A DNA stretch of 64,000 nt, taken from contig JBNGIO010006356.1 of NCBI GenBank assembly GCA_049999805.1, positions 1 through 64,000 of the forward strand, in the 5' to 3' direction. Position 1 is the first letter of the stretch. Every line of letters starts with the position of its first letter. The notes beneath the pieces were generated by a model, which saw only the letters and a program-made list of their open reading frames with translations, had not been told where the DNA came from and made no database searches. This document shows positions 4,448-61,912 of this stretch, piece after piece. The position numbers and the translations under genes are program-made. Source of the DNA: Folioceros fuciformis (Eukaryota).

Positions 4448-9406
<4,959 letters not shown>

Positions 9407-11921
9407 GAAGCACAATCGGGAAGCCTGCCGGCTGGTACCTGCATAACGTGAGGGAATTCCATGAAAAGAACAATCCTCCTCCCTCCTGACACTGCAACAC
9501 ACAAGCTAGGCAAGTCGCAGACGCCCCCCATTCCTTCCCCTACCTCACTCAGCAGCCTGCAGTTGAGGTCATTCTCAAGGATTCCGTCTCCCTCCACGCT
9601 AAAATCGGGCAGTGAAAATCCGAGCCATCATGCCATCACCTGGACACGCGCATTCCGCAGCAGGAAGAGCGCACGCACCAAGAGGAGTGAGACGCAGGTG
9701 GCCAATGCACGGCCTGGACCGTGGAGCAGGCAATGACGAAGAAATGGCACAAGGCGCCCCACCCACTGCCCGGGAACCACACGCCAAAAAGGACGAAATT
9801 TCAACCATGTGCAGAAGGTATCTACACGGATAGCACACCTCCGCGCTCCCCTTCTTTCCCGCATCCGGTCGCAAGCTGTGAAATTCCGAGCACCCGTGCA
9901 AGGTCCTGCGCAGGTAGCTGAGACGCACCAGGCACTCTGTGCTAGAGACGAAAATCGATCAGCCCGACTTCCAAGGACAGTGGCTGGTGATGGACCCTTC
10001 CCTGGTCATGTGCCCGCACCTCTCGCCCCTTCGAGATCTCACATCCACCTCCCCGTGCGGTGCGGTAGCCATTGCAAGCCAATTCCCGTTGACCCAACGT
10101 CCATCGTCGGGTTCTCCCCACCGCAGGATACATACTCATATACATAGCCCGTGGCAGATAAATTTTATTCGGATGCACCTCCATTCCATAATAAGCCATG
10201 ACAGCCTGAGAGCGGCCACGTGTGAAAAACGTTATAAAAATCAGGTGAAAATTATCCTTCCGAACTGCTGCAGCATGCGGATACAAACCGGTACACCGAA
10301 TCTGCGGCAAAGCCATCATTTTCTCCCAAATTTGGGAAGGAAGGGGTATTTAAAAAAAACGAAAATGAATTCGAGCCTCCGAGGCTTGCGTCGGGTACAC
10401 CAGACATAATTGGCTTGAAGTCGCCGAGCTCGGGGGCTTCACGTCAAGGGGGGCAACACAGGTGTGCCACAAGCGTTTTCTAATGCTGGCTGCAATTGTT
10501 ACACAAAGGAGGGGCCCGTCGGCTTGTCCGCTTTGAAATCAGGAACGGAATGGGCCCCATGTGGCACGGCCACAGCATAGGTGCGGAATGTAGCCACTTC
10601 ATGCCAGCCCAGGCGCCAACCCGATACAAGACTATTACACTACATTGTACATGCGTGTTTAGGAGTGAGTATCGAGGCCCCAGTGGATCCAGCTTCAGTG
10701 AAAGGTGTGTTTGGGTAGTCACTAGCCAGTCGAAGAGCGAGGAGGTGGGGTGCTGCCCACATTCCAAGATTCTGGGACAAAGTCGGGTGTGACATTTCAG
10801 GACACACATAGCAGGAGGGCAGGCANNNNNNNNNNNNNNNNNNNNNNNNNNNNNNNNNNNNNNNNNNNNNNNNNNNNNNNNNNNNNNNNNNNNNNNNNNN
10901 NNNNNNNNNNNNNNNNNNNNNNNNNCGGGGGCTGTTGAGCATAACGTGCCTGCGGTTGAGTGCTGCACCTACTGTGCGTACGGGATCTGGTTCCATGGTG
11001 TCAGCACTGTGGAATTCTAGCGTACTGCGCATCACCGTCGACTGCCACCTTGCTTACATGATGTCGACTCCTCATCGTCCTACGCAGACACTGTGGTGCC
11101 GTTTGGGAGTCGGAACCATTTGCATGACGAGGTTGCCCGCCTCGCTAACGTGAATGCGACGCCTGTCTTCGTATTAGCCAAGAGTACATGGAACTTGGAA
11201 GGTACATGATATTTGAAGGAGCTCAAGAGGCGTGAGAATCTGGATCATTCGGTTGGGAAGGAGAAATAGAGGAATCCCAAAGGTTGTTAAGTAGTCTCCG
11301 AATTCAAGGGGTGCAGGAGGGGTGGAAGACTAAGTTGATGAGAAAAGCCCTTGGAAGGGGAAATTACAAGGAATTAGGCAGCAAGTGCATTACATTGTGC
11401 CCTCGGAGGACATTCAATCAGGATAACAGGTAGTCATATGTTTCGTTGTTAAGATTTTAGTAAGCTTTGAAAATATTGATATATTCTTGTCCAGATTATC
11501 GTACCCGTACCCTACCCTGCCCCTGTGAGATAAACCTGTGTTTCCATATCTGTATGTACTGTAAGTACAAAAGAACTTACTGAAGCGTAAACGCAAAAAG
11601 TTACAAAGGCTTGGCCAACCGCCCGAGTGTTGAGTCATGGTCCTGGGACACCCAGGCAGCCCGTGATCCCAGCGACGAGCTATGCACGCCGTGAGGACTG
11701 TTTGTGCAGCGTGCGGAGCAGTGGCGTGAAACAAGGAGAAGGAAGCGTCACCCAATCCTTCCTCCCTTCGGTTCAAAACTGAGGAGCCAGGGGAATGGCC
11801 GGGCCGCCATTGCAACGGGACGATCCATGGCAGCGACTGCAGCCGCGGCCGCAGCGGCAGAACTGGTGGCGGCGGGGGCCACGGATCGTTGACGACGGCT
11901 GCCAGAGGGGAAGGAAGAGCA

Positions 11922-17069
<5,148 letters not shown>

Positions 17070-18412
17070 GTCACTCCTGAGCTTAACATGACTCAGAATT
17101 GGTATGCTTCGTTTTCAACTTGTGTGTGTACGTTGTGTCCCTGCTCTCAAAATTCGAAGAGTGAGTCTACATGGACTGTGCCGGTTCGATCCCCTTGTCA
17201 TAGAAGACTGAAAGCCCAGGAAAACAGAAGTCGGGACGTTTGTTCTCACAAGATCGGAGCTCGAGCATCCAGCCACGCAACTTTCGCAACCAATTATCGC
17301 GTGCGTGATTGAAAAACGACACGCAAAGCCAAAGGAACAGCTTAGGGAAAGGAACTGGAGATAAATACTTTGACGAGCCATGAAAATTCAAGCACTTCAT
17401 TGTCAGCAGGTGGGAGCAGTGGTAGCTCAGACGCAGGCAACCAAATGCTGTCTTCTCGTGCTCCGAGGCCCACTAGTCTAGAACTAAATAGGAGAGGACG
17501 AGTTTGCATCGTGATGGCATAGTTCCTTTGCCTTTCAGAGTATTTTGCCTTTCAGAGTATACAAGAACAAGTGTAGCATAGGCCATTTGGACCAAACATT
17601 TGCTAGTTAGCAAATTGGATGACATCTCGTCTAAACTATGTAAACTGCGTATGTACTTTGCACCAAGAGGCCCTGGGTTACCTCTGGATCCCGATATCCT
17701 GCTAATCGTCGGCCATGCCAGAAGTGGAGTTCGGGAGGGCTAAATTTAGCCCCGATGTTCGTGGGAGCTAGTGCCTTTTTTTGGCTTTCCACCCCTGAGT
17801 CTAATTTTTGTTGAATGGAGCATCCGTCTCCTCTTCCAATGAAATATTCTTCCTGCAAGGTCCAGATCTGCAGCTTTCTTCTTCCCCGCCAGTGCGCGAC
17901 CGATTCAGAGATACCGCGCCGGATGTGTGAAAACGTTTCCCCTGCCTTCCTCACCTTCCATGCTAATCCTCAATTCATTCCACAAATCCAAACACCTTTT
18001 TGCTTGAGTGCAAAAGCTAGCATACTTTGCACATCTACCCCTCCAGGTGACGTCAGGTGCCAATGCTTTGAGCGCGGACGGAGCAACGTCTACGCGGGTC
18101 CACCCCCTAATGCACGTCGTGACCTCAGGTGTTCCTGTCACAATTACCAGATAAATCCAACAACTGGACCTCCGATTCCATCGCATGGGAGCCCAATTTC
18201 AAGCCTGCAGGCTGCACCCCTGAATCGTCAAGCCCTAGCCCCACTCCGTGATCCGGGACATCGCAAGCTAGCCAACCATCGCCATGTCTCAGTTTGAGGG
18301 AGATGGAGCTAAGCAAGCATATTCCCCTCACCAAAGGAAGTAGTATTCTCTGACTCCACACCTGGTACTGGCTGGCTAGCTGATCTTTGTCATCATCTTT
18401 GTCAGTTCAGCC

Positions 18413-21400
18413 TTAGGGACGACCCTTACAACTGCAGGAACCGTTTACGAAACGATGCACCCGGTATCCATCCCTCACGACAATGTCTCTCTGTTCGAGC
18501 CTTGACATGATCTCAGTGGAACTGTGGCAGTCACCGCACATGCGTAGGTTTTTCGTTACCATCAGGGTTGTCCCGCTCGGAGTGTTCAAGAGACCAAACG
18601 CCAGAGCTAGCTTCTCAGCGTGACCACAAAGTGCATCTTCTTTTTCGTTTTCAGATAGCGGCTTCAGTACCAAGTTAGTCTGAGGCAAGTGGCCTCCTTC
18701 CTGCTTCAGACGGGCATTGGTGCTCTTGACCTTAAGAGCTATATCTTCTCTCGTTTCTCCCACCACAAACCGATGTATCTGCTTGTTCACCTCGATGGTC
18801 GTGACTGCAGGTTTCTTGTTAGCTCCTGCTACCCTTCGCTGTGTTTCAATCTTGTCTACATCGGGCCACCTACCTGCATCTGCGTAGGCGTTGGCCATGA
18901 GAACATATGCAGTCGCATCCTGGGGTTCCAGCCTAACAATCCTTTCAAAACACCACAAAGCCCTGTCTACATCCCCGTGAATTTTGCAGGCATTCAACAA
19001 AGACCTCAAGCCCACGACATTACTCTGCCCCTCACATGACAAAAGCATCTTCTCCGCCTCCTCTAAATGGCCAGCACGCCCAAGAAGATCAATCATGCAG
19101 GTGTAATGCTCAATAGTAGGATTGATGCCGTGCCGTTCAGCCATGGAATCAAAGTGTTTGCAACCCTCGTGGACCAGGCCCTCATGACTGCAGGCCGTTA
19201 GAAGGCAAGTAAAAGTAGCTTCATTAGGCCGAACACCGGCCATTAACATCTCGTCAAAACAACCTAGTGCCTTGTGACCTTCATCACAAGCACCATACCC
19301 AGCAATAAGCGCTGTCCATGTCACCACATCCCTTTGGGTCATGCTGTCCAAAACGTGGCGTGCCTCTTCCAGTTCACCACATTTCACATACATGTCCACC
19401 AGGCGGTTGCCCACCACTACATCATCCAGCAGTCCCCTGTCGACAATCTGTGAGTGCAGTTGCCTGCCCTTCTGTAACGCACCAGAGCTTCCACAGGCCT
19501 TCAGAAGACAAGAGAAAGTGACATGGTCAGCCAAACCAAGGTCCGCCTCCTCCATTTGTCCATACACAGCAAGCGCCTCTTGGCCGAGTCCCTGCTCTGC
19601 ATACCCGGCAATCATTGTATTCCATGTCACCACATCTTTTGTGGCCATGTTGTCAAAAACATGGCGTGCATCTTCCAGTTCACCACATTTTGTATACATG
19701 CCCACAAGGCAGTTGCCCACCACAACCTCATCCAGCAGTCCTCTTTTGACTATCTGTGAGTGCAGCTGCATGCCCTTCTGTAAGGCACCACTGCTTCCAC
19801 AGGCCTTCAGAAGGCAAGCAAAAGTAACATGGTCAGCCAAAACGAGGCCGGCCTCCTCCATTCGTCCATACACAACAAGCGCCTCATGGCCTAGTCCCTG
19901 CCGTGTATACCCAGCAATGAGAGCATTCCATGTCACCACATCCTTTGTGGCCAAAGTGTAAAAAACCTGGCGCGCATCTTCCAGTTCACCACATTTTGCA
20001 TACATGTCCACCAGGCAGGTGCCCACCACTACATTATCCAGAAGTCCTCTTTCAACAACCTGTGAGTGCAGCTGCATGCCTTTCTGTAAGGCACCAATGC
20101 TTCCACAGGCCTTCAAAAGGCAAGCAAATGTAACATGATCAGCCAAAATGAGGCCCTCCTCCTCCATTTGTTCATACAGAACAAGTGCCTCGTGTCCCAG
20201 CCCTTGCTCGGAATACCCAGCAATCAGCACCGTCCATGTCACTACACTCTTTGTGGCCAAGCTGTCAAAAACCTGGTGTGCACGTTTCAGTCTGCCACAT
20301 TTTACATACATGTCCACCAGGCAGCTGCCCACCACCATGTTCTCTAGCAGCCCTCTTTCGACAATCTCTGAGTGCAGCTGCATGCCCTTCCATAAGGCAC
20401 CAGTGCTTCCACAGGCCTTCAGAAGACAAGCGAAAGTAACATGGTCAGCCAAAGTAGGGCCCGTCTCCTCCATTTGCTCATACACACCGAGCGCCTCTTG
20501 GCCGAGACCTTGCTGCGCATACCCAGCAATCATGACATTCCATGTCACCACGTCCTTTACGGCCATGCTGTCGAAGACCTGGCGTGCAGCTCCTACTTCG
20601 CCACATTTTGCATACATGTCCACCAGGCAGTTGCCCATCACAACGTCATCCAGCAGTCCTCTTTCAACGATCTGTGAGTGCAGTTGCATGCCCTTCTGTA
20701 AGGCACCAGTGCTTCCACATGCCTTCAGAAGGCAAGTAAAAGTGACATGATCAGCTAAAATAAGGCCCGCCTTCTCCATTTTTCCGTACACAACAAGCGC
20801 GTCTTGGCCTCGTCCTTTCTGCGAATACCCAGCAATCAGCGCTGTCCATGTCACCACATCCTTTGTGGCCAAGCTGTCAAAAACCTGGCGTGCATCTTCC
20901 AGTTCACCAAATTTCGCATACATGTCCACCAGGCAATTGCCTACCACTACGTCATCCAGCAGTCCTCTTTCAACAATCTGTGCGTGCAGTTGCATGCCCT
21001 TCTGTAAAGCACCAGTGGTTGTACAGGCCTTCAGAAGGCAAGAAAAAGTAACTTGGTCAGCCAGAATGGGGTTCGCCTCCTCCATTTGTTCATATACAAG
21101 TAGCGCCTCTTGGCCGAGTCCTTGCTGTGCATACCCAGCAATTAGGACATTCCATGTCACCGCATCCTTTGTGGGCAAGCTTTGAAAAACTCGGCGTGCA
21201 TCCTCCAGTTCACCACATTTGGCATACATGTCCACCAGGGAGTTGCCCAAAACAACATTACCCAGCAGTCCTCTTTCGACAATCTGTGACTCCAGGTGCC
21301 TGCCCTCTTTTAAGGCACGAGTGGTTGCACAGGCCTTAAGGAGGCAAGCAAATGTCACATGGTTAGCCAAAGTGAGGCCCGCATCCTCCATTTGTCCATA

Positions 21401-22852
21401 CACAGCAAGCGCCTCTTGTCCGAGTCCTTGCTGTGCATACCCAGCGATGAGGGCGGTCCATGTCACCACATTCTTTGTTGCCAAGCCATCAAAAACCTGG
21501 CGTGCATCTCCCAGTTCACCACATTTTGCATACATGTCTAGCAGGCAGGTGCCCATCATTACGTTATCCAGGAGACCTCTTTCAACAATCTGCGAGTGCA
21601 GCTGCCTACCCTCCTGTAAGTCTCCAGTGCTTGCACAGGCCTTCAGAAGGCAAGAAAAAGTGACATGGTCAGCCAAAATCAGCCCTGCTTCCTCCATTTG
21701 TCTATACACCGCAAGTGCCTCATGTCCGAGCCCTTGATGGGAATACCCAGAAATCAGCACGGTCCACGTCACCACATCCTTTGCCTTCATGCTCTCAAAA
21801 ACCTGGCGAGCGTCTTCCAGTTGACCACATTTTGCATACATGTCCACCAGGCAGTTGCCAACAATCAAATTAGTAGGAATGCCACTCTGCACTACATCAC
21901 AGTGCACTTTCCTGCCAGACTCCAAGTCAGCGGCAAAAGCACAAGCTTGAAGGACAGCTACAAAGACGTGAGCATCAGGTTGCACTCCCGACCTGCACAT
22001 CTCATGGTACAATTGTACGGCCTCATTAGGCTTCCCATGCTTAGCGTATGCGGAGATAATGGAAGACCACATGAAGGCATCCGGTTTCCCCACTCTGGTG
22101 AGCACATTCATGGCCTCCTCTAGCCTTCCTCGACATGCATACATGCGTAAGATATGGTTCCCCAAGTATGCATTCGACTCGTACCCAAGTTGGACACAGA
22201 GGTCATGAACTCGTCGTCCCACAACCAGATCCTTCTTAGCTATACATAGTTTCAGCACAGTATAAAACAGAGACAGAGAAACAGCAGAGTCTGTCTGCGC
22301 CAGAGATTCCAGGGCTCTAGCGGCCTCAGCAAGCTTCCCCTGCTGACATAACAAAGGCACGGTTCCAGCCGTTACGACACCCAGTTCCGATCCTGCACGC
22401 CTCCAGGGTTCAGGATTATCCGGGGAGCTGGTCTCAGAAGGGGAGGCAACATGGCCCATCTGGATATCCAAGGAAATGAGCTGCTCATCAACCCAAGCTG
22501 GCTTCAACATGTTGTTTAACCACAGGACCTCGCCGGACCCCTTACGCCTGAAGTCAGGCGAACGGGAGCCCTTCTTGTCTCGTCTGTTATCCCACCACAT
22601 GGAAGGGTTCAGAAAAAATTGTTGCCACAAGTGCTCTTGCTCCTGGCGACGACCATCCTGGGAAATCCCTTCCTCACCCACACATTTCATGGGAAGCGGA
22701 AGCGCTGGGCTCCTTACACACCTGCACCTGGCGGCATTGTTTGCAACGGATTCAGTCCCTACAGTGAGGTGAGCTGGAGCTCCCAGCAGAATCCCAGTAA
22801 ACACACCAAGTTGTTGGGTCCACAACGGGTCCGCTTGCCACACGGTGGCCAT
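18413..22852 (-). CDS. PLS-class pentatricopeptide repeat protein with E and DYW:KP (GRP-ending) domains and an N-terminal PDF motif; candidate organellar RNA-editing factor
   Basis: Intronless 1479-aa ORF with about 32 P/L/S motifs and E motifs. The C-terminal domain has a KKPAVTTIEV box, HAEKLA and CGDC zinc ligands, and ends HRFVNGSCSCKGRP. The N-terminus carries WWDNR..K...SPDF. Confidence 0.95.
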   Translation of the reverse strand: MATVWQADPLWTQQLGVFTGILLGAPAHLTVGTESVANNAARCRCVRSPALPLPMKCVGEEGISQDGRRQEQEHLWQQFFLNPSMWWDNRRDKKGSRSPDFRRKGSGEVLWLNNMLKPAWVDEQLISLDIQMGHVASPSETSSPDNPEPWRRAGSELGVVTAGTVPLLCQQGKLAEAARALESLAQTDSAVSLSLFYTVLKLCIAKKDLVVGRRVHDLCVQLGYESNAYLGNHILRMYACRGRLEEAMNVLTRVGKPDAFMWSSIISAYAKHGKPNEAVQLYHEMCRSGVQPDAHVFVAVLQACAFAADLESGRKVHCDVVQSGIPTNLIVGNCLVDMYAKCGQLEDARQVFESMKAKDVVTWTVLISGYSHQGLGHEALAVYRQMEEAGLILADHVTFSCLLKACASTGDLQEGRQLHSQIVERGLLDNVMMGTCLLDMYAKCGELGDARQVFDGLATKNVVTWTALIAGYAQQGLGQEALAVYGQMEDAGLTLANHVTFACLLKACATTRALKEGRHLESQIVERGLLGNVVLGNSLVDMYAKCGELEDARRVFQSLPTKDAVTWNVLIAGYAQQGLGQEALLVYEQMEEANPILADQVTFSCLLKACTTTGALQKGMQLHAQIVERGLLDDVVVGNCLVDMYAKFGELEDARQVFDSLATKDVVTWTALIAGYSQKGRGQDALVVYGKMEKAGLILADHVTFTCLLKACGSTGALQKGMQLHSQIVERGLLDDVVMGNCLVDMYAKCGEVGAARQVFDSMAVKDVVTWNVMIAGYAQQGLGQEALGVYEQMEETGPTLADHVTFACLLKACGSTGALWKGMQLHSEIVERGLLENMVVGSCLVDMYVKCGRLKRAHQVFDSLATKSVVTWTVLIAGYSEQGLGHEALVLYEQMEEEGLILADHVTFACLLKACGSIGALQKGMQLHSQVVERGLLDNVVVGTCLVDMYAKCGELEDARQVFYTLATKDVVTWNALIAGYTRQGLGHEALVVYGRMEEAGLVLADHVTFACLLKACGSSGALQKGMQLHSQIVKRGLLDEVVVGNCLVGMYTKCGELEDARHVFDNMATKDVVTWNTMIAGYAEQGLGQEALAVYGQMEEADLGLADHVTFSCLLKACGSSGALQKGRQLHSQIVDRGLLDDVVVGNRLVDMYVKCGELEEARHVLDSMTQRDVVTWTALIAGYGACDEGHKALGCFDEMLMAGVRPNEATFTCLLTACSHEGLVHEGCKHFDSMAERHGINPTIEHYTCMIDLLGRAGHLEEAEKMLLSCEGQSNVVGLRSLLNACKIHGDVDRALWCFERIVRLEPQDATAYVLMANAYADAGRWPDVDKIETQRRVAGANKKPAVTTIEVNKQIHRFVVGETREDIALKVKSTNARLKQEGGHLPQTNLVLKPLSENEKEDALCGHAEKLALAFGLLNTPSGTTLMVTKNLRMCGDCHSSTEIMSRLEQRDIVVRDGYRVHRFVNGSCSCKGRP

Positions 22853-23286
22853 AGTTTAGCTACCGCTGTCGGAAGATGGTTCCAACAACAGATAATGGCA
22901 GGATGCCCAGGTCCTGTGCACGATGACACCATACGGGGCTGGTTCTCATGAACACGGGCCGAACCCGACGGCCTTACATCCAAACAAATCTGCGGAGGTG
23001 CACAACTACACCAAATAAAATAGTCCAAGCCGAGATCTCAGACATGCCGATACAGAGATGAGCTCCCATAATTCCACGACCGGGGCATTCGTTGTGCTTC
23101 ATGAAGCATCGACCGGGCAGCGGCCACTACAGACTCCCCGTTCATGTGAACTGGTGTCCGCTGTCAAACGAGGCCCGGACGAAACCGTTCCCACCAAAAC
23201 GGTCAAATGGGATTCCCTTGAACCCGTTCCGTACAGAGCACCAAACTCTCTGCTCTCGGCCGTGATGCGACTCCGGGAGAAAAGCG

Positions 23287-23467
23287 AGTTTGGCTCCTCG
23301 GTGCTCACAGGTGCTAAGATGGTACCACCTACTGGAAACTGTTAAGATATTCAAAGTTGAGTCGATTCAGAAATCTAGTTTGGCTCCTCGGTGCTCACAG
23401 GTGCTAAGATGGTACCACCTACTGGAAACTGTTAAGATATTCAAAGTTGAGTCGATTCAGAAATCTA
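23287..23467. repeat. Perfect 90-bp tandem duplication
   Basis: agtttggctcctcggtgctcacagg...gattcagaaatct starts at 23287 and 23377. The ORF track shows the duplicated peptide LAPRCSQVLRWYHLLETVKIFKVESIQKS. Confidence 0.95.
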
Positions 23468-53175: not shown

Positions 53176-54849
53176 TCGCACTCCGACAACAATTCGAATG
53201 CTGGAAATCACCAGCTGCAGCCTGCAGCAGGACAACGCCACGCACACACATGGCAGCTCAGCATTTCACTGGGATCCGTAAGTCCACTCATCTGCTGTCC
53301 ACTTCCGGACTTACTCACTTTGAGAAGAGGAGAGCTGACAGGAAGTTCGCAAGATCCGGCCGGGATGCGCACACCCGTGCCCAACAATCGCAGGCCAGTC
53401 GTCCACCGGAATCAAGTAGCAGTTCAGAACTCTAGCGATCGTTGCTGGCCCAACCTCGTCCTCCGTTCCGCTTAGGGCAGCTGGCCTGGACATTGGCTTG
53501 CCTTGAGCTCAGTCTCACGCCTCCATGGACGACCACGCTCCCCATGGCGGCTTCTCCAGCCCCGAAATTAGGAGAGGGCGCTTAGTAGACGCCTGATCTC
53601 CGACACCATCGATTCCCGCAAAACCGCACGAAGCCCGAGAGCAATCTAATCCAGAGGGGCGGTCCAGGGGCAGCGCACAACCCACGAAGCTGGCTTGGCT
53701 CACAAGCAATTCGCACCCACACAGGTGCCGAGAGGAGCTGCAGGGTGGAAGCGGGAGGACCGGATGTGAAAAAAGAGACGAGCGGACGCATTGGGGGCAC
53801 GTAGGAACGGACCCACCTCGGGGGAGGTCGAGATCTACTCGCTTGGAACTGACCCGGCGCCGCAAACACTGTCGAAGGTTCCGTTGACATGCCGGACATG
53901 CACATACACATCCTTACATCAATATGCACATATGTGTGTGTAGTTGCAAGAAGGAGCACCTTGTAACGTCCTTTTGTTGGGCTACATGGCTCCATGGAAT
54001 CGATTCAGGTGTGGATATCCTGTGCAGATCCTGATGCTGTGGGTGTGGCCGTGCAACTATGCCAACCTCTTGGAAGCCTACTGTGTGTAGTTGCGCAAAC
54101 GATTCTCCTATTCATGCCCATGACCCTGGGGCCCGGAGCCGGTGGCCCGGGGACTGGGGCCTGGAGGCCTGGGCCGGAGTACAGTCATCAGGTACGCCAT
54201 GCCTCCCTCCTTGCTTTAGGGGGCAATTCGGGAACCGAGGGCCTCGCCTCCAGTGGCGCTTTCGTATTTGGAGACAAACCAGCAGGCACAAATCTGGCGC
54301 AGTGGCGCATACATTTGTACCTGTTTACCTCCGATCTTTCCGCTGGCAACAGCTGCCAACGAAATCTGTCGCATGTCCGTCTCCTATTGCGACGCACCAG
54401 GGCTCGGGTCAGGGCCAGCGAGGGCCGGGGCAGGGCCCATCCAGTTGCGCACACGGGACTTGTCTCCCCTCTTGCTCAAGAACGACGGAAGACTCTTAGA
54501 TGCCAACAACATTTCCTTACCCCCACAACGGCCACGAGTAATTAATAAATCCATTTTATTTCTCATGAATCTGTATTAACGTCAAACAACAAAACAGAGC
54601 CCTCTCCCGCTTTCGAATCCCCTAAATCTGTACTGTAAGTCTACAGATATCTACACACATATGCGGACAGGGTAGCATTGAGAGCAGAATTCCTAGAGCT
54701 GTGCAGTGATATTTGGCCGGAGACGACGCACACTGGTGCTGTGGAGGTTGTGAGGGCGCGTACTGTGAATTGTGCCTGCCCAGCTTGATTTCCGCGAAGT
54801 CGCCCTGCAAGCCAGCGGATTGGCGGGAAATCTGGAATGCCAGATTTTA

Positions 54850-57515
54850 ATGTCATTCCTCGTGCGCGACTGCTGTGATGCGTCTTGTGCCAAGACCGTA
54901 AGGCTCACGGAACTGACTGCTCCTCGCTCTCTCGATGCCCTTGCTGTTCCACTCTCCCCCTTGGTGAGCTTCCACGGCCGTCTCCGTAGCGTGTGGAGCA
55001 GGTGCACCTCGGGGCAGAGCTCCGCAGAATGTAGAGCCTGGAGCAGGCCTCGGGGGTATGCGTCCTGGAAAACTGTATTCGCCTCTGCATCGGCCGCGCC
55101 GCAGCGAGGTCTCCAGGCAGATGGAAGCAGTCCCCTTGCCGAGAAGGCTAGGCTGGAGGAGATCCACAGCTTCATTTCATTACCGGCATTGGCATCCAAA
55201 ATATCTGGCCGGCCCACTCTCCTGGACAGACAGGCGAATGCGCTGGAGGGCTCTGCTAATTTCTCATGGCGGGAGCGGGCTGAGGCTATGAATGGGCTGC
55301 TGGACTTGCTGGAGCAGGAAGGGGTTCATTCCGCATATGCCTTTGAGTTCGTCCGTTATGCCGGGGATTTGGTTGATTTGCTCATCATTGAGGCCAAGGA
55401 GTTCTTCGGCAGCTACTGTGATGCCCCTCCGTTGGCGTGCGGGAATGGCATCGACTCGCAGTCTTCGGACGGCCATGCTGGGACCCGGTTGGCAGCAGAG
55501 ACTGTTGGAGAACGTGGCTCGCACGCTGAACGAGACTTTCTGCCCTTGTTGGATATGAGGAGGCTGAAAGACCTCGATGTGCATCCGGTTACACTGGATG
55601 ACAACATAACCAGACCAGCACTTCCTCTCAGCGTTAGTGTTGCAATCATTGCTGGCAATCTTGGTTTATCGAGGCTGGCTTTGTACTTTCAACAGATAGG
55701 CATGAGGGCCCCTGATCTCTCCAAGCTGCTCCCGTTTGTAAGCCGGAACATTGACGACGTCATGGCCAAAGTGGAGTTTTTGAGAGCCATCGGAGTCCAG
55801 ATTGCCCAGCTTCCGCAAATTCTCACAAGGTGTCCACAGCTGCTAACTTTCCAATATGAACGGCTTGCTCCAGTGGCAGAGTATTTGAGAAGCCTGGGCT
55901 TGTCAGATACTGAGATTGGGAAGATAGTGACAAAGACGCCACAAGTTCTAGGTTGCCAGTTGGAGGAGTTGCTCGAGACTGTGCAGTATTTCGACCACTT
56001 AGGTGTTGCCTCGGGAGACTTCAAGAAACTGGTCGTTCGATATCCTATCCTTCTGACTGATGCTAAGTTCCGGGTGGAGTCGCTGATTGCCTTTCTGGAG
56101 GGTATAGGCGTACAAAAGAAGCACTTTGGGGGACTACTGAGACGAAGGCCCGTGCTACTGGAGAGCAATATAGAAAGGGATTTGATGCCAATAGGGAATT
56201 ATCTCAAGGTCATCAATGCCAAGCCAGATGACATCGACAAGATTGTTACCTCGTTCCCAGGACTTTTTTGCTATGATCTTGAGCAGGTATTCTTTCCCTC
56301 GTGCCTGTCCTCTCCACCAGTTAACTCCTTTTCTGATAAAGCTTTCTTTGGTTTGCTGCCCCGCTTGTGCTGCGATAGGACTTCAAGCCAACTGTTCAAC
56401 ACCTCCAGAGCTTGGGAGTAGAACTAGCCCTCATGGGCAAGCTGTTTAGAAGGCATCCTCAGTTGCTAAGGAATCGGCACAGCTTTCTTCGTCGAACAGA
56501 ATACCTTCTCAGCTTGGGGCTCGATCGCAACGACCTTGGTAAGGTGGGTAACTGCCTTGCATGTCGTTTGACATTCGTCGTGTAGTACATCATCTGGTCG
56601 GATATCAGATTTCTGTGGCTTTGCTTTGTTGAATGGCCGTTGGTTGCGTGCACCAGGTTATTTATAATGCACCTCAACTGCTTGGTCTAAGTGTGGAGGA
56701 AAACATGATGCCAACTGTGCAGTTTCTGCATGACATAGGTGTTGAAGGGCCTGGCTTACTGAAGGTATTAACATTGCTGCTAGAAAGTTCTAGAGCAAGT
56801 GATAGGATGTACGCATGTCCGTTCTCATGCTGTGATTTGTCCACGCTGGGCAGGTTCTCAGATTGAAGCCCATGATACTGGCACATAACGTGAACTCTAA
56901 GCTTCAGCCAAATTTGAGATACCTTGCAAGTATTGGGATCAAATCTCGAGATCTTGCCAAGTAATGGACTCAACACTGCTTTCATTTTTGAAGCACAACT
57001 TTTCTCGTTTATGTCGTCAGCTGAGGATCTGTGGTTGACAGGCTAGTCACACGTCATCCACAGCTGCTCACGTTAAGTGTGGAAAATAATCTCATTCCAA
57101 CCGTGAAGTTCTTCCACAACCTTGGGTTCAGCAGGTGGGCTCATGGTGATGCTCTTCTTGCTCCTTCAACAGGTTTGGTCTCTAGTGTGGTTGACAAGCT
57201 TGAGAGGGCTGCCTGGATGGTTGCAGGTCGGAAATCGCAGAGATGGTAAGGAGATTACCCTCCCTTCTCGGATTTAGTGTGTGCACAGCTTTGGAGCCCA
57301 AGTACAAGTACTTAGTTGATGACATGAAAAGGTCCCGGCAGGAGGTGGTTCAGTTCCCTCAGTTCTTCAGTTATAGTCTATCAAAGCGCATAGCTCCCAG
57401 GTTCGAACGTCTTGGGTTAGGGCAACTGCTCTGTTCCCGCTCGCTAAATAGCATCTACGGCTGTAACGATGCAGTGTTTGAAAGGAAGTTGCGCAGGTGG
57501 CATTCCACCTTATGA
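54850..57515 (+). CDS. mTERF family protein (organelle-targeted), multi-exon
   Basis: Repeated mTERF motifs (KVEFLRAIGV..ILTRCPQLL, VAEYLRSLGL..KIVTKTPQVLG, LIPTVKFFHNLG). C-terminal FPQFFSYSLSKRIAPR. Ser/Arg/Ala-rich N-terminus. Confidence 0.9.
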
Positions 57516-60754: not shown

Positions 60755-61912
60755 CTAAGCCTGTCCACACTTTCGGAGAGATCGTAACCCCTCTTCCTCA
60801 TACTCGTGCCTGCTTATCCAGAACTCTGGAGTGTCCTTCATGATGTCTGCCAGGACGGCACCTCCAAGGTATACCAAGTGCTTACGACGAGGGGGATCCT
60901 CAATTCTGAGCCTCAGCTTGGAAAGACCGTCCTTGTTCCCCTTGAGGACAGTGTGAAGATAGCGTTCACGGATCTCCTTCTCCAGCCTGCTGGGCAGACC
61001 AGGGTACATGGTGCTCCCACCGCTGAGGACGATATGTTGGTACAAAGTCATGCGATTGTCAATATCCATCTCCTGGATGCACCTGAAAACAAGGTCTGCC
61101 AAACCATCTCCTTCCACATCGATGAGCTCTGGGGTGAAGAGAGCTTCAGGGGCCTGGAAGCGTTCGGCACCAACCTTGATGACCCGACCGTCAGGCAAGG
61201 TGTACTGCTTCACCAGGATGGTTGTCTCCAAAGCAAGCCTCATCTCCCGCTTGTAGTCGATGCTCATGTAGCAAAGCTGCTCCTTGATTTCCCGCACACT
61301 CTCCAAGTCAGCTGTTCTATTCAAGGAGTATCCTCTCCTGAGCAGCAGGTCCAAGAGGTACGAGGTGATCTGCCTCCCAGCCATGTTCATCCGCTTGGTG
61401 AGGTGAGGAAAGGAGAAGCCATCCACCACAGGCACGATATGCGTCACACCGTCGCCCGAGTCCACAACAAGTCCAGTCAAGAGCCCCTGCGCATACAGTG
61501 TGAGCACCGCCTGAATTTGCACAAAAACAGCTGCGAAGTTGTACTTCTCGAACATGGTTTGCACCATCCTCTCCCTGTTCTTGATAGGGTTGAGAGGCGG
61601 GTCCGTGAGCAAGATCTTGCATTCGGAAGGCTCAATTTGAAGCACCTCATGGAATGTGTGATCCCACACTTGGCTCATATCATCCCAATTCTGGATGACT
61701 CCCCTGGATATGGGGTACGAAAGCTCCAGCTGATGCCGCAGCTCTTGGCAGCTGTTGCCTACAAACACTCCCTTGGAATCATGGTCGTCCTCCCGGGGCG
61801 TGGAGCGTCCCACCATACACGGGAAAACTGCTGTAGGGAAGTTGTCTCCAGCGAAACCGCACTTGACGAAGCCCGTCCCATTGTCGCACACAATCACGTC
61901 GTGCGCACCCAT
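60755..61912 (-). CDS. ARP2: Actin-related protein 2 (Arp2/3 complex), intronless
   Basis: 385-aa single ORF with [72 protein letters not shown] and IEDPPRRKH, all diagnostic of ARP2. Confidence 0.96.

Follow-up and report, generated by a model that had tools for sequence, protein, structure and literature searches.

A PLS-class pentatricopeptide repeat protein of Folioceros fuciformis with a GRP-type DYW:KP domain and an N-terminal PDF motif, a candidate U-to-C RNA editing factor

Introduction

The first 64,000 nucleotides of contig JBNGIO010006356.1 from Folioceros fuciformis (NCBI GenBank assembly GCA_049999805.1, forward strand), hereafter the window, carry on their minus strand an intact gene for a pentatricopeptide repeat (PPR) protein of the PLS class. 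This protein, P0001, terminates in a DYW domain of the DYW:KP type whose last three residues are GRP. All coordinates below are positions within the window. DYW:KP domains, a class linked to U-to-C RNA editing, are defined by a KP pair in place of the PG pair, an alanine or cysteine after the zinc-binding histidine, and a variable C-terminal triplet (PMC11845758). In hornworts they comprise the DRH and GRP subgroups, which are named from the last three residues and credited to Gerke et al. 2020 (PMC9478123). What, then, does a native gene of the GRP subgroup look like, and what might its product do? This article describes the gene, its C-terminal domain, its repeat array and an N-terminal motif, and weighs the function that can be proposed for it.

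The gene and its product

From stop to stop, the open reading frame (ORF) spans 18413..22855 of the minus strand. Its start ATG lies at 22850-22852, directly preceded by a stop codon, and it closes with a TAA at 18413-18415 (Table 1). Pfam finds the DYW_deaminase family (PF14432) at residues 1387-1477 (E 3.1e-33, 113.9 bits for a cut-off of 24), the E_motif family at residues 1292-1354 (E 1.3e-14), and PPR families with E values down to 1e-166, scores so strong that the domain assignment is not a chance match. Taken together with motif parsing, these matches give a series of P-L-S triplets, followed by a P2-L2-S2 triplet, an E1 and an E2 motif, all ahead of the DYW domain. The locus is a real and complete PLS-E1-E2-DYW gene.

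The C-terminal part of the protein reads KKPAVTTIEVNKQIHRFVVGETRED...LCGHAEKLALAFG...VTKNLRMCGDCHSSTEIMS...VNGSCSCKGRP, and the last 134 residues run KKPAVTTIEV...FVVGETRED...CGHAEKLA...VTKNLRMCGDCHSSTEIMS...CSCKGRP. The initial annotation of this DNA, made from the letters alone, had singled out positions 18413-18830, which take in the DYW domain (18416-18817) with the stop codon behind it and four E2 residues ahead of it. It had announced KKPAVTTIEV instead of a PG box, HAEKLA instead of HSEKLA, an intact CGDC, and an end in CSCKGRP rather than DYW. It did not state the strand; each of these motifs is present in the translation of the minus strand, the CGDC as C1439-G-D-C1442 and the GRP end immediately before the TAA.

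Neither P0001 nor a near-identical protein was found among about 15 billion proteins by exact look-up and similarity search. At the DNA level, the reads of four sequencing runs gave thousands of contigs of 56-130 nucleotides that match the window at 95-99% likeness, many having two placements. One 5609-nucleotide contig (run X1) matches window positions 18000-18518 with a single mismatch, and 24 sequencing runs, with no RNA run listed among them, contain 0.09-0.17 of the sampled words of the window.

Table 1. Features of the P0001 gene and of its product (positions in the window; HMM, hidden Markov model).
Feature	Residues	Position	Strand	Evidence or remark
Coding sequence of P0001, complete and without introns (1479 codons)		18416..22852	-	translation without stop
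N-terminal extension	1-66	22655..22852	-	few acidic residues; no Pfam family on residues 1-200
OSB-type PDF motif (LWQQFFLNPSMWWDNRRDKKGSRSPDFRRKGSGEVLWLNNMLKPAWV)	67-132	22457..22654	-	OSB2 similarity, profile search, HMM envelope 67-132
First PPR motifs, degenerate (an incomplete P followed by L and S)	~163-258	22079..22366	-	motif parsing; first triplet-HMM match from residue 169
Nine P1-L1-S1 triplets	259-1175	19328..22078	-	motif parsing
Last eight P1-L1-S1 triplets	360-1175	19328-21775	-	102 residues each: P1 36, L1 35, S1 31
P2-L2-S2 triplet (35, 36, 32 residues)	1176-1278	19019..19327	-	motif parsing
E1 and E2 motifs	1279-1345	18818..19018	-	Pfam E_motif 1292-1354
DYW:KP domain, GRP subgroup, 134 aa	1346-1479	18416..18817	-	Pfam, alignment, tree, structure matches, profiles
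KKPAVT, KP box replacing the PG box		18800..18817	-	translation, alignment
H1411-A1412-E1413: zinc His, Ala for Ser, catalytic Glu	1411-1413	18614..18622	-	translation, alignment
K1434 in VTKNLRM, counterpart of designer KP Lys88 and OTP86 K915	1434	18551..18553	-	alignment; roles in PMC11845758, PMC7611903
C1439-G-D-C1442, CxxC zinc ligands, M1438 ahead (Val95/Met92 position)	1439-1442	18527..18538	-	translation, alignment
G1477-R1478-P1479 triplet in place of DYW, after C1473-S-C1475	1477-1479	18416..18424	-	translation, alignment

The DYW domain

The domain retains a complete set of catalytic and zinc-binding residues. H1411, E1413, K1434, C1439 and C1442 are invariant across 36 aligned domains; C1473, C1475, H1443 and H1466, candidates for a putative second zinc site, are conserved in the same alignment, the C-terminal histidine and cysteine being invariant. 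By sequence, the domain matches the solved structures 9kfx (E 4.9e-38), 7w86 and 7o4e, with E values ranging to 3.7e-28. It falls by sequence in the same deaminase fold family as these PG-type factors (a synthetic PPR-DYW protein, DYW1 and OTP86, respectively), and shares with them the zinc ligands, the catalytic glutamate, the active-site lysine and the PLS-E1-E2-DYW architecture. For OTP86, the roles of the zinc ligands, of the catalytic glutamate and of the DYW-specific lysine have been described (PMC7611903). P0001 nevertheless differs from the PG factors in carrying KP for PG, HAE for HSE and GRP for DYW, and the reaction expected of it is reversed. It also lacks three residues, near what would map to the start of the gating domain of OTP86 (H837).

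When residues are counted from the second lysine of KKPAVT, Lys1434 falls at position 88 and Met1438 at position 92, as in PMC9478123. Lys88 is essential for U-to-C editing (PMC11845758), and Met92 of KP domains corresponds to Val95 of PG domains (PMC9478123). The same source reports that the xHP motif is missing in most KP domains, and that GRP proteins lack an otherwise conserved aspartate and carry a glutamate instead of K103. In P0001 a glutamate, E1447, replaces the lysine that follows CxDCH, a column which presumably is that of K103. The four GRP-ending sequences of our set have E, T, E and Q at this place, whereas the DRH and other HAE-type sequences grouped with them (see below) retain both this lysine and the aspartate of the C-terminal triplet in 14 cases out of 14; P0001 has neither. 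E1447 may pair with R1478, in which case the Lys-Asp bond that PG domains have would be present here with its charges exchanged.

P0001 therefore has in common with the published GRP subgroup, and with the consensus designs KP2 and KP3 based on it, the KP box, HAE, the methionine before CxDC, the missing xHP, the counterpart of Lys88, the loss of the aspartate of DYW and of the lysine after CxDCH, and the GRP end (PMC9478123). The features from which the initial annotation had recognised DYW:KP, and with it a link to U-to-C editing, do match the published descriptions of DYW:KP and GRP. P0001 differs from KP2 and KP3 in being a single native gene product with about 32 PPR motifs and a PDF motif, the designs being consensus proteins made of three PLS triplets and the C-terminal motifs.

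Classification of the domain

Relatives of P0001 came from a word-indexed search (27 proteins) and from an exhaustive representative search, of which the best 150 of 2505 were kept. A maximum likelihood tree was built from 143 alignment columns with the quick search of IQ-TREE under LG+G4, branches being supported by the Shimodaira-Hasegawa-like approximate likelihood ratio test (SH-aLRT). It includes 158 of 175 proteins, those with a near-complete domain; the other 17 were left out for partial coverage.

The tree splits these sequences into a KP side of 45 and a PG side of 113 (SH-aLRT 88), with P0001 on the former. The only four sequences ending in GRP, P0001 included, form one clan (SH-aLRT 96), itself nested inside a clan of 18 in which all members have HAE (SH-aLRT 97) and which P0001 shares with DRH and other HAE-type DYW:KP domains. 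Its three companions in the GRP clan are singletons that are 66-71% identical to it over the domain, with no database relative exceeding 71% there; its nearest neighbour outside the clan, P0003, ends in DRH.

The two sides also differ in the motifs by which the classes are told apart (Table 2). The segment running from the VG of FVVGE to the zinc histidine, which had been described as shortened, is indeed 48 residues long in P0001, and only three of the 113 PG-side sequences have 49 residues or fewer.

Table 2. Motif composition of the two sides of the DYW tree.
Character	KP side (45 sequences)	PG side (113 sequences)
Residue after the zinc His	HAE 21, HCE 14, HSE 10	HSE 110
Position before CxDC	Met 34	Val/Ile 98, Met 12
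C-terminal end	DYW 0	xxW 103, DYW 69
VG-to-His segment	median 48	median 51

Profile scores point the same way. P0001 obtains 193.9 bits with a KP profile built without the GRP sequences and 165.0 bits with the PG profile, so that this check, also put forward by the initial annotation, favours KP by 28.9 bits. For comparison, the KP-minus-PG difference ranges from -59 to -24 for the PG-side sequences and from +6 to +60 for the KP-side ones, all of which sat in the training sets of the profiles. Since the tree alone does not polarise KP versus PG, it is the well-supported clans, together with profile scores and motif criteria, that carry the classification. On these grounds, assignment of the P0001 domain to the published GRP subgroup of DYW:KP is supported.

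The PPR array

The motif boundaries of Table 1 were set with lengths that we take to be 35 residues for P, 35 for L, 31 for S, 35 for P2, 36 for L2, 32 for S2, 34 for E1 and 33 for E2. The P1-L1-S1 triplets start at residues 259, 360, 462 and so on up to 1074. In the DNA, Tandem Repeats Finder describes the region 19294-21859 as 8.4 copies of a period of 306 bp with 82% matches. Compared pairwise, the last eight triplets are 69-80% identical in protein (about 74%) and 78-85% identical in DNA, an array far more regular than expected for a natural PLS protein. Their mean nonsynonymous divergence (dN) is 0.148 and their mean synonymous divergence (dS) 0.444, which gives a dN/dS of 0.33. A dS of about 0.44 means that the internal duplications are not recent, while a dN/dS of about 0.33 points to purifying selection on the scaffold of the array. 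The specificity residues, which are the fifth and the last in a motif, vary from triplet to triplet.

In the PPR code, these two residues designate the base that is read: TD or SD corresponds to G, TN or SN to A, and ND to U. The S2 motif is aligned to position -4 from the edited base. With this code applied to the P and S motifs, n standing for the L motifs and the edited base being numbered 0, the predicted target from -34 to -4 would read U G n U G n A A n U U n U G n U U n (A) G n G U n U U n U A n A. The E1 motif is placed at -3 (PMC9478123).

An OSB-type PDF motif ahead of the array

The first 66 residues of P0001 are taken here as a putative organelle-targeting presequence. The segment that follows, residues 67-132 (LWQQFFLNPSMWWDNRRDKKGSRSPDFRRKGSGEVLWL..KPAWV), recurs N-terminally in P0002 and in several PG-type PPR-DYW proteins, and it keeps a Pro-Asp-Phe signature. 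A BLASTP comparison with OSB2 of Brachypodium aligns it with both C-terminal motifs of that protein (45% identity over 64 amino acids, E 2e-17; 37%, E 7e-9). In AtOSB1, a PDF motif of 50 residues is sufficient for single-stranded DNA binding (PMC6963530, PMC4166229).

Searching with a PDF profile built from five N-terminal segments gave 221 matching proteins at E <=1; the counts that follow hold among the matches listed, 120 in number. Six of them are named OSB2 or OSB3, including proteins of Eucalyptus (E 3.8e-28) and Brachypodium (E 1.5e-24), and many others belong to the PPR family and come from Diphasiastrum complanatum, Sphagnum species, Calypogeia fissa and Selaginella. With an HMM made from the triplets of P0001 itself, 88 of the 122 PDF-bearing proteins examined have a PPR match and 34 have none. 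The PDF motif stands ahead of the PPR array in 87 of these 88, and 33 of them carry a DYW domain, 29 scoring as PG and four as KP. These four are three GRP proteins and one Selaginella protein, the latter at only +6 bits. Seen from the side of the tree, the motif is present in three of the four GRP sequences, P0001 among them, and in none of the 12 full-length sequences of the other HAE members. A hand count found the SSB family (PF00436) in nine of the 120 listed proteins. Some proteins carry the motif in several copies: one has 11, two have four and eleven have three. P0176, a PDF-motif protein of 908 amino acids, has no precomputed Pfam domain.

Other searches with this part of P0001 gave nothing. 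Pfam returned no family at E up to 10 on residues 1-200, hence no OB-fold or SSB-like domain; a sequence search of the PDB with residues 55-150 gave chance-level matches to CP29 only (E 0.42-0.69); and a word-based search for shorter proteins with the N-terminal motif alone yielded seven candidates, none at E <=0.01. In OSB proteins the PDF motif is C-terminal and lies behind an OB fold, whereas in P0001 it is N-terminal and precedes the PPR array. Being devoid of an OB or SSB domain, P0001 shares a module with the OSB proteins and is not itself one of them.

No description of the combination of PDF and PPR was found in the main texts of the openly accessible papers searched. It is conceivable, if somewhat doubtful, that the motif defines an unreported "PDF-PLS-DYW" architecture, in which organellar editing factors have acquired, by fusion ahead of their PPR repeats, a module that binds single-stranded nucleic acid and is known from the OSB proteins of genome maintenance. 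If functional, it could tether editing factors to the nucleoid or to nascent single strands, or raise their on-rate. It would then also be relevant to native U-to-C factors, their synthetic counterparts, which lack it, being those that stall at a crosslink (see below).

Proposed function and alternatives

What might this gene do? The motifs, the domain classification and the architecture suggest that it is probably a native nuclear gene encoding an organelle-targeted PLS-class PPR protein of the DYW:KP GRP subgroup, acting as a site-specific U-to-C ("reverse") editing factor. After import into an organelle, the approximately 32 PPR-type motifs would line up along one single-stranded organelle transcript, each reading one base through its residue 5 and its last residue. 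The E1, E2 and DYW regions would thereby be placed over a uridine lying some four bases 3' of the one that S2 reads, and the zinc site (H1411, E1413, C1439 and C1442) together with Lys1434 would turn this uridine into cytidine. A Schiff-base intermediate between the lysine and C4 is the probable route, in keeping with the lysine Schiff-base model proposed for U-to-C editing (PMC11332814). As for the PDF motif, it would probably contribute a sequence-independent affinity for single-stranded nucleic acid.

Several points weigh against this proposal. That the protein enters an organelle, which way it edits, at what target and by what chemistry, and what its PDF motif does are inferred, whereas the intact gene, its domain architecture, the conservation of every catalytic residue and the placement in the KP/GRP sequence group are shown. 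The evidence for U-to-C activity in the literature found comes from synthetic consensus proteins only, and one of these designs, KP6, also performs C-to-U editing (PMC11845758, PMC11332814). No knock-out of a native DYW:KP gene appears among the literature titles listed, and in the literature found native proteins of this class are credited with U-to-C activity by inference. Eight near-identical triplets are unusual in themselves, and could be a recently expanded array that has no matched target. Finally, the phylogenetic check envisaged by the initial annotation came out divided: the GRP clan and the HAE clan around it stand, but the branch separating KP from PG has an SH-aLRT of only 88, and when P0001 is held together with the 113 PG sequences the log-likelihood is 5.08 lower, a placement that the approximately unbiased (AU) test does not reject (p-AU 0.479). 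In our reading, this constraint can be satisfied merely by letting the PG group join the KP subtree beside the GRP clan, so that the test would gauge how loosely the KP subtree is rooted.

Could P0001 then be an editing factor that works in vivo as a C-to-U deaminase, or in both directions, as KP6 does? Its hydrolytic deaminase site (HxE and CxxC) is complete, KP6 carries out C-to-U editing in vitro and in human cells, single substitutions switch the direction (PMC11845758, PMC11332814), and the HAE/HSE position does not decide the direction of the reaction (PMC9478123). We nonetheless regard this alternative as unlikely. The GRP-based designs KP2 and KP3 gave about 26% and 22% U-to-C editing in E. 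coli and no detectable C-to-U editing (PMC9478123); the counterpart of their Lys88 is present as Lys1434; and K88A mutants suggest that KP2 and KP3 are more optimised for U-to-C than is KP6 (PMC11845758).

It is similarly improbable that the gene is a paralogue without catalytic activity or without a target, newly arisen through the duplication of its own triplets, which binds RNA without editing it or is already decaying. Such a view would be in line with the strong likeness of the eight consecutive 102-residue triplets, with the failure to find this protein or a near-identical one among about 15 billion proteins, with a search of sequencing runs that listed no RNA, and with the size of the family, hornwort genomes having up to 2,308 PPR genes (PMC13386178). 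The 4.4-kb ORF, however, contains no stop codon or frameshift, and every catalytic and zinc residue has been retained. The triplets, with the divergence given above (dS about 0.44, dN/dS about 0.33), are not recent duplicates, and their specificity positions differ from one to the next, as expected of an array that reads a sequence.

The last alternative, a canonical PG-type C-to-U factor misread by the initial annotation, is contradicted by the motif tests and hardly credible: the AU test does not reject it and the PG profile still gives 165 bits, yet P0001 lacks the PG pair, HSE, xHP and the DYW end, sits in a supported clan with GRP- and DRH-type sequences, and has an advantage of 28.9 bits with the KP profile, when 113 of 113 PG-side sequences (which belonged to the training set) have one of 24-59 bits with the PG profile.

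Genomic surroundings

The window is gene-dense nuclear DNA. Besides the PPR gene, it carries two ABC-transporter genes as well as one gene each of the 2OG dioxygenase, DUF212, ankyrin, mTERF, F-box and actin-related families. The two ABC-transporter genes, both multi-exon and coding for ABC_membrane as well as ABC_tran domains, are arranged head to head a short way beyond the 3' end of the PPR gene, at about 5060-9505 on the minus strand and 11730-16900 on the plus strand. On the other side, about 430 bp upstream of the PPR start codon, there is a perfect 90-bp tandem duplication (23287-23467, 2.0 copies, 100% matches). An ORF of 550 residues with an mTERF domain (54769-56418, plus strand, E 4e-28) is found 32 kb from the PPR gene; mTERF proteins are another family of organelle gene-expression factors. 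Further on lies an intron-free actin-related ORF (60758-61912, minus strand, Pfam Actin E 1.5e-97), whose exact sequence was not found among the roughly 15 billion proteins.

Significance

P0001 adds a further, uncharacterised protein to a gene family that is known and very large. Both its class and the GRP subgroup have been published, and assays of consensus GRP designs exist. Genes of this kind are very numerous in hornwort genomes, so that this one does not stand out among them. U-to-C conversion is, however, the sole pyrimidine transition without a characterised native enzyme in the literature found. The synthetic KP proteins stall in bacteria at a protein-RNA crosslink, whereas edited RNA in a fern is not crosslinked, and their authors consider that the derivation of these proteins from consensus sequences may be one cause (PMC11332814), which makes a native gene worth testing. 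An intact native GRP gene is a usable test object in this respect, both for the native mechanism and for the engineering of RNA base editors, and its eight-triplet PLS array offers a natural "designer-like" scaffold. Added value also comes from the OSB-type PDF motif, which recurs before many bryophyte and lycophyte PPR arrays.

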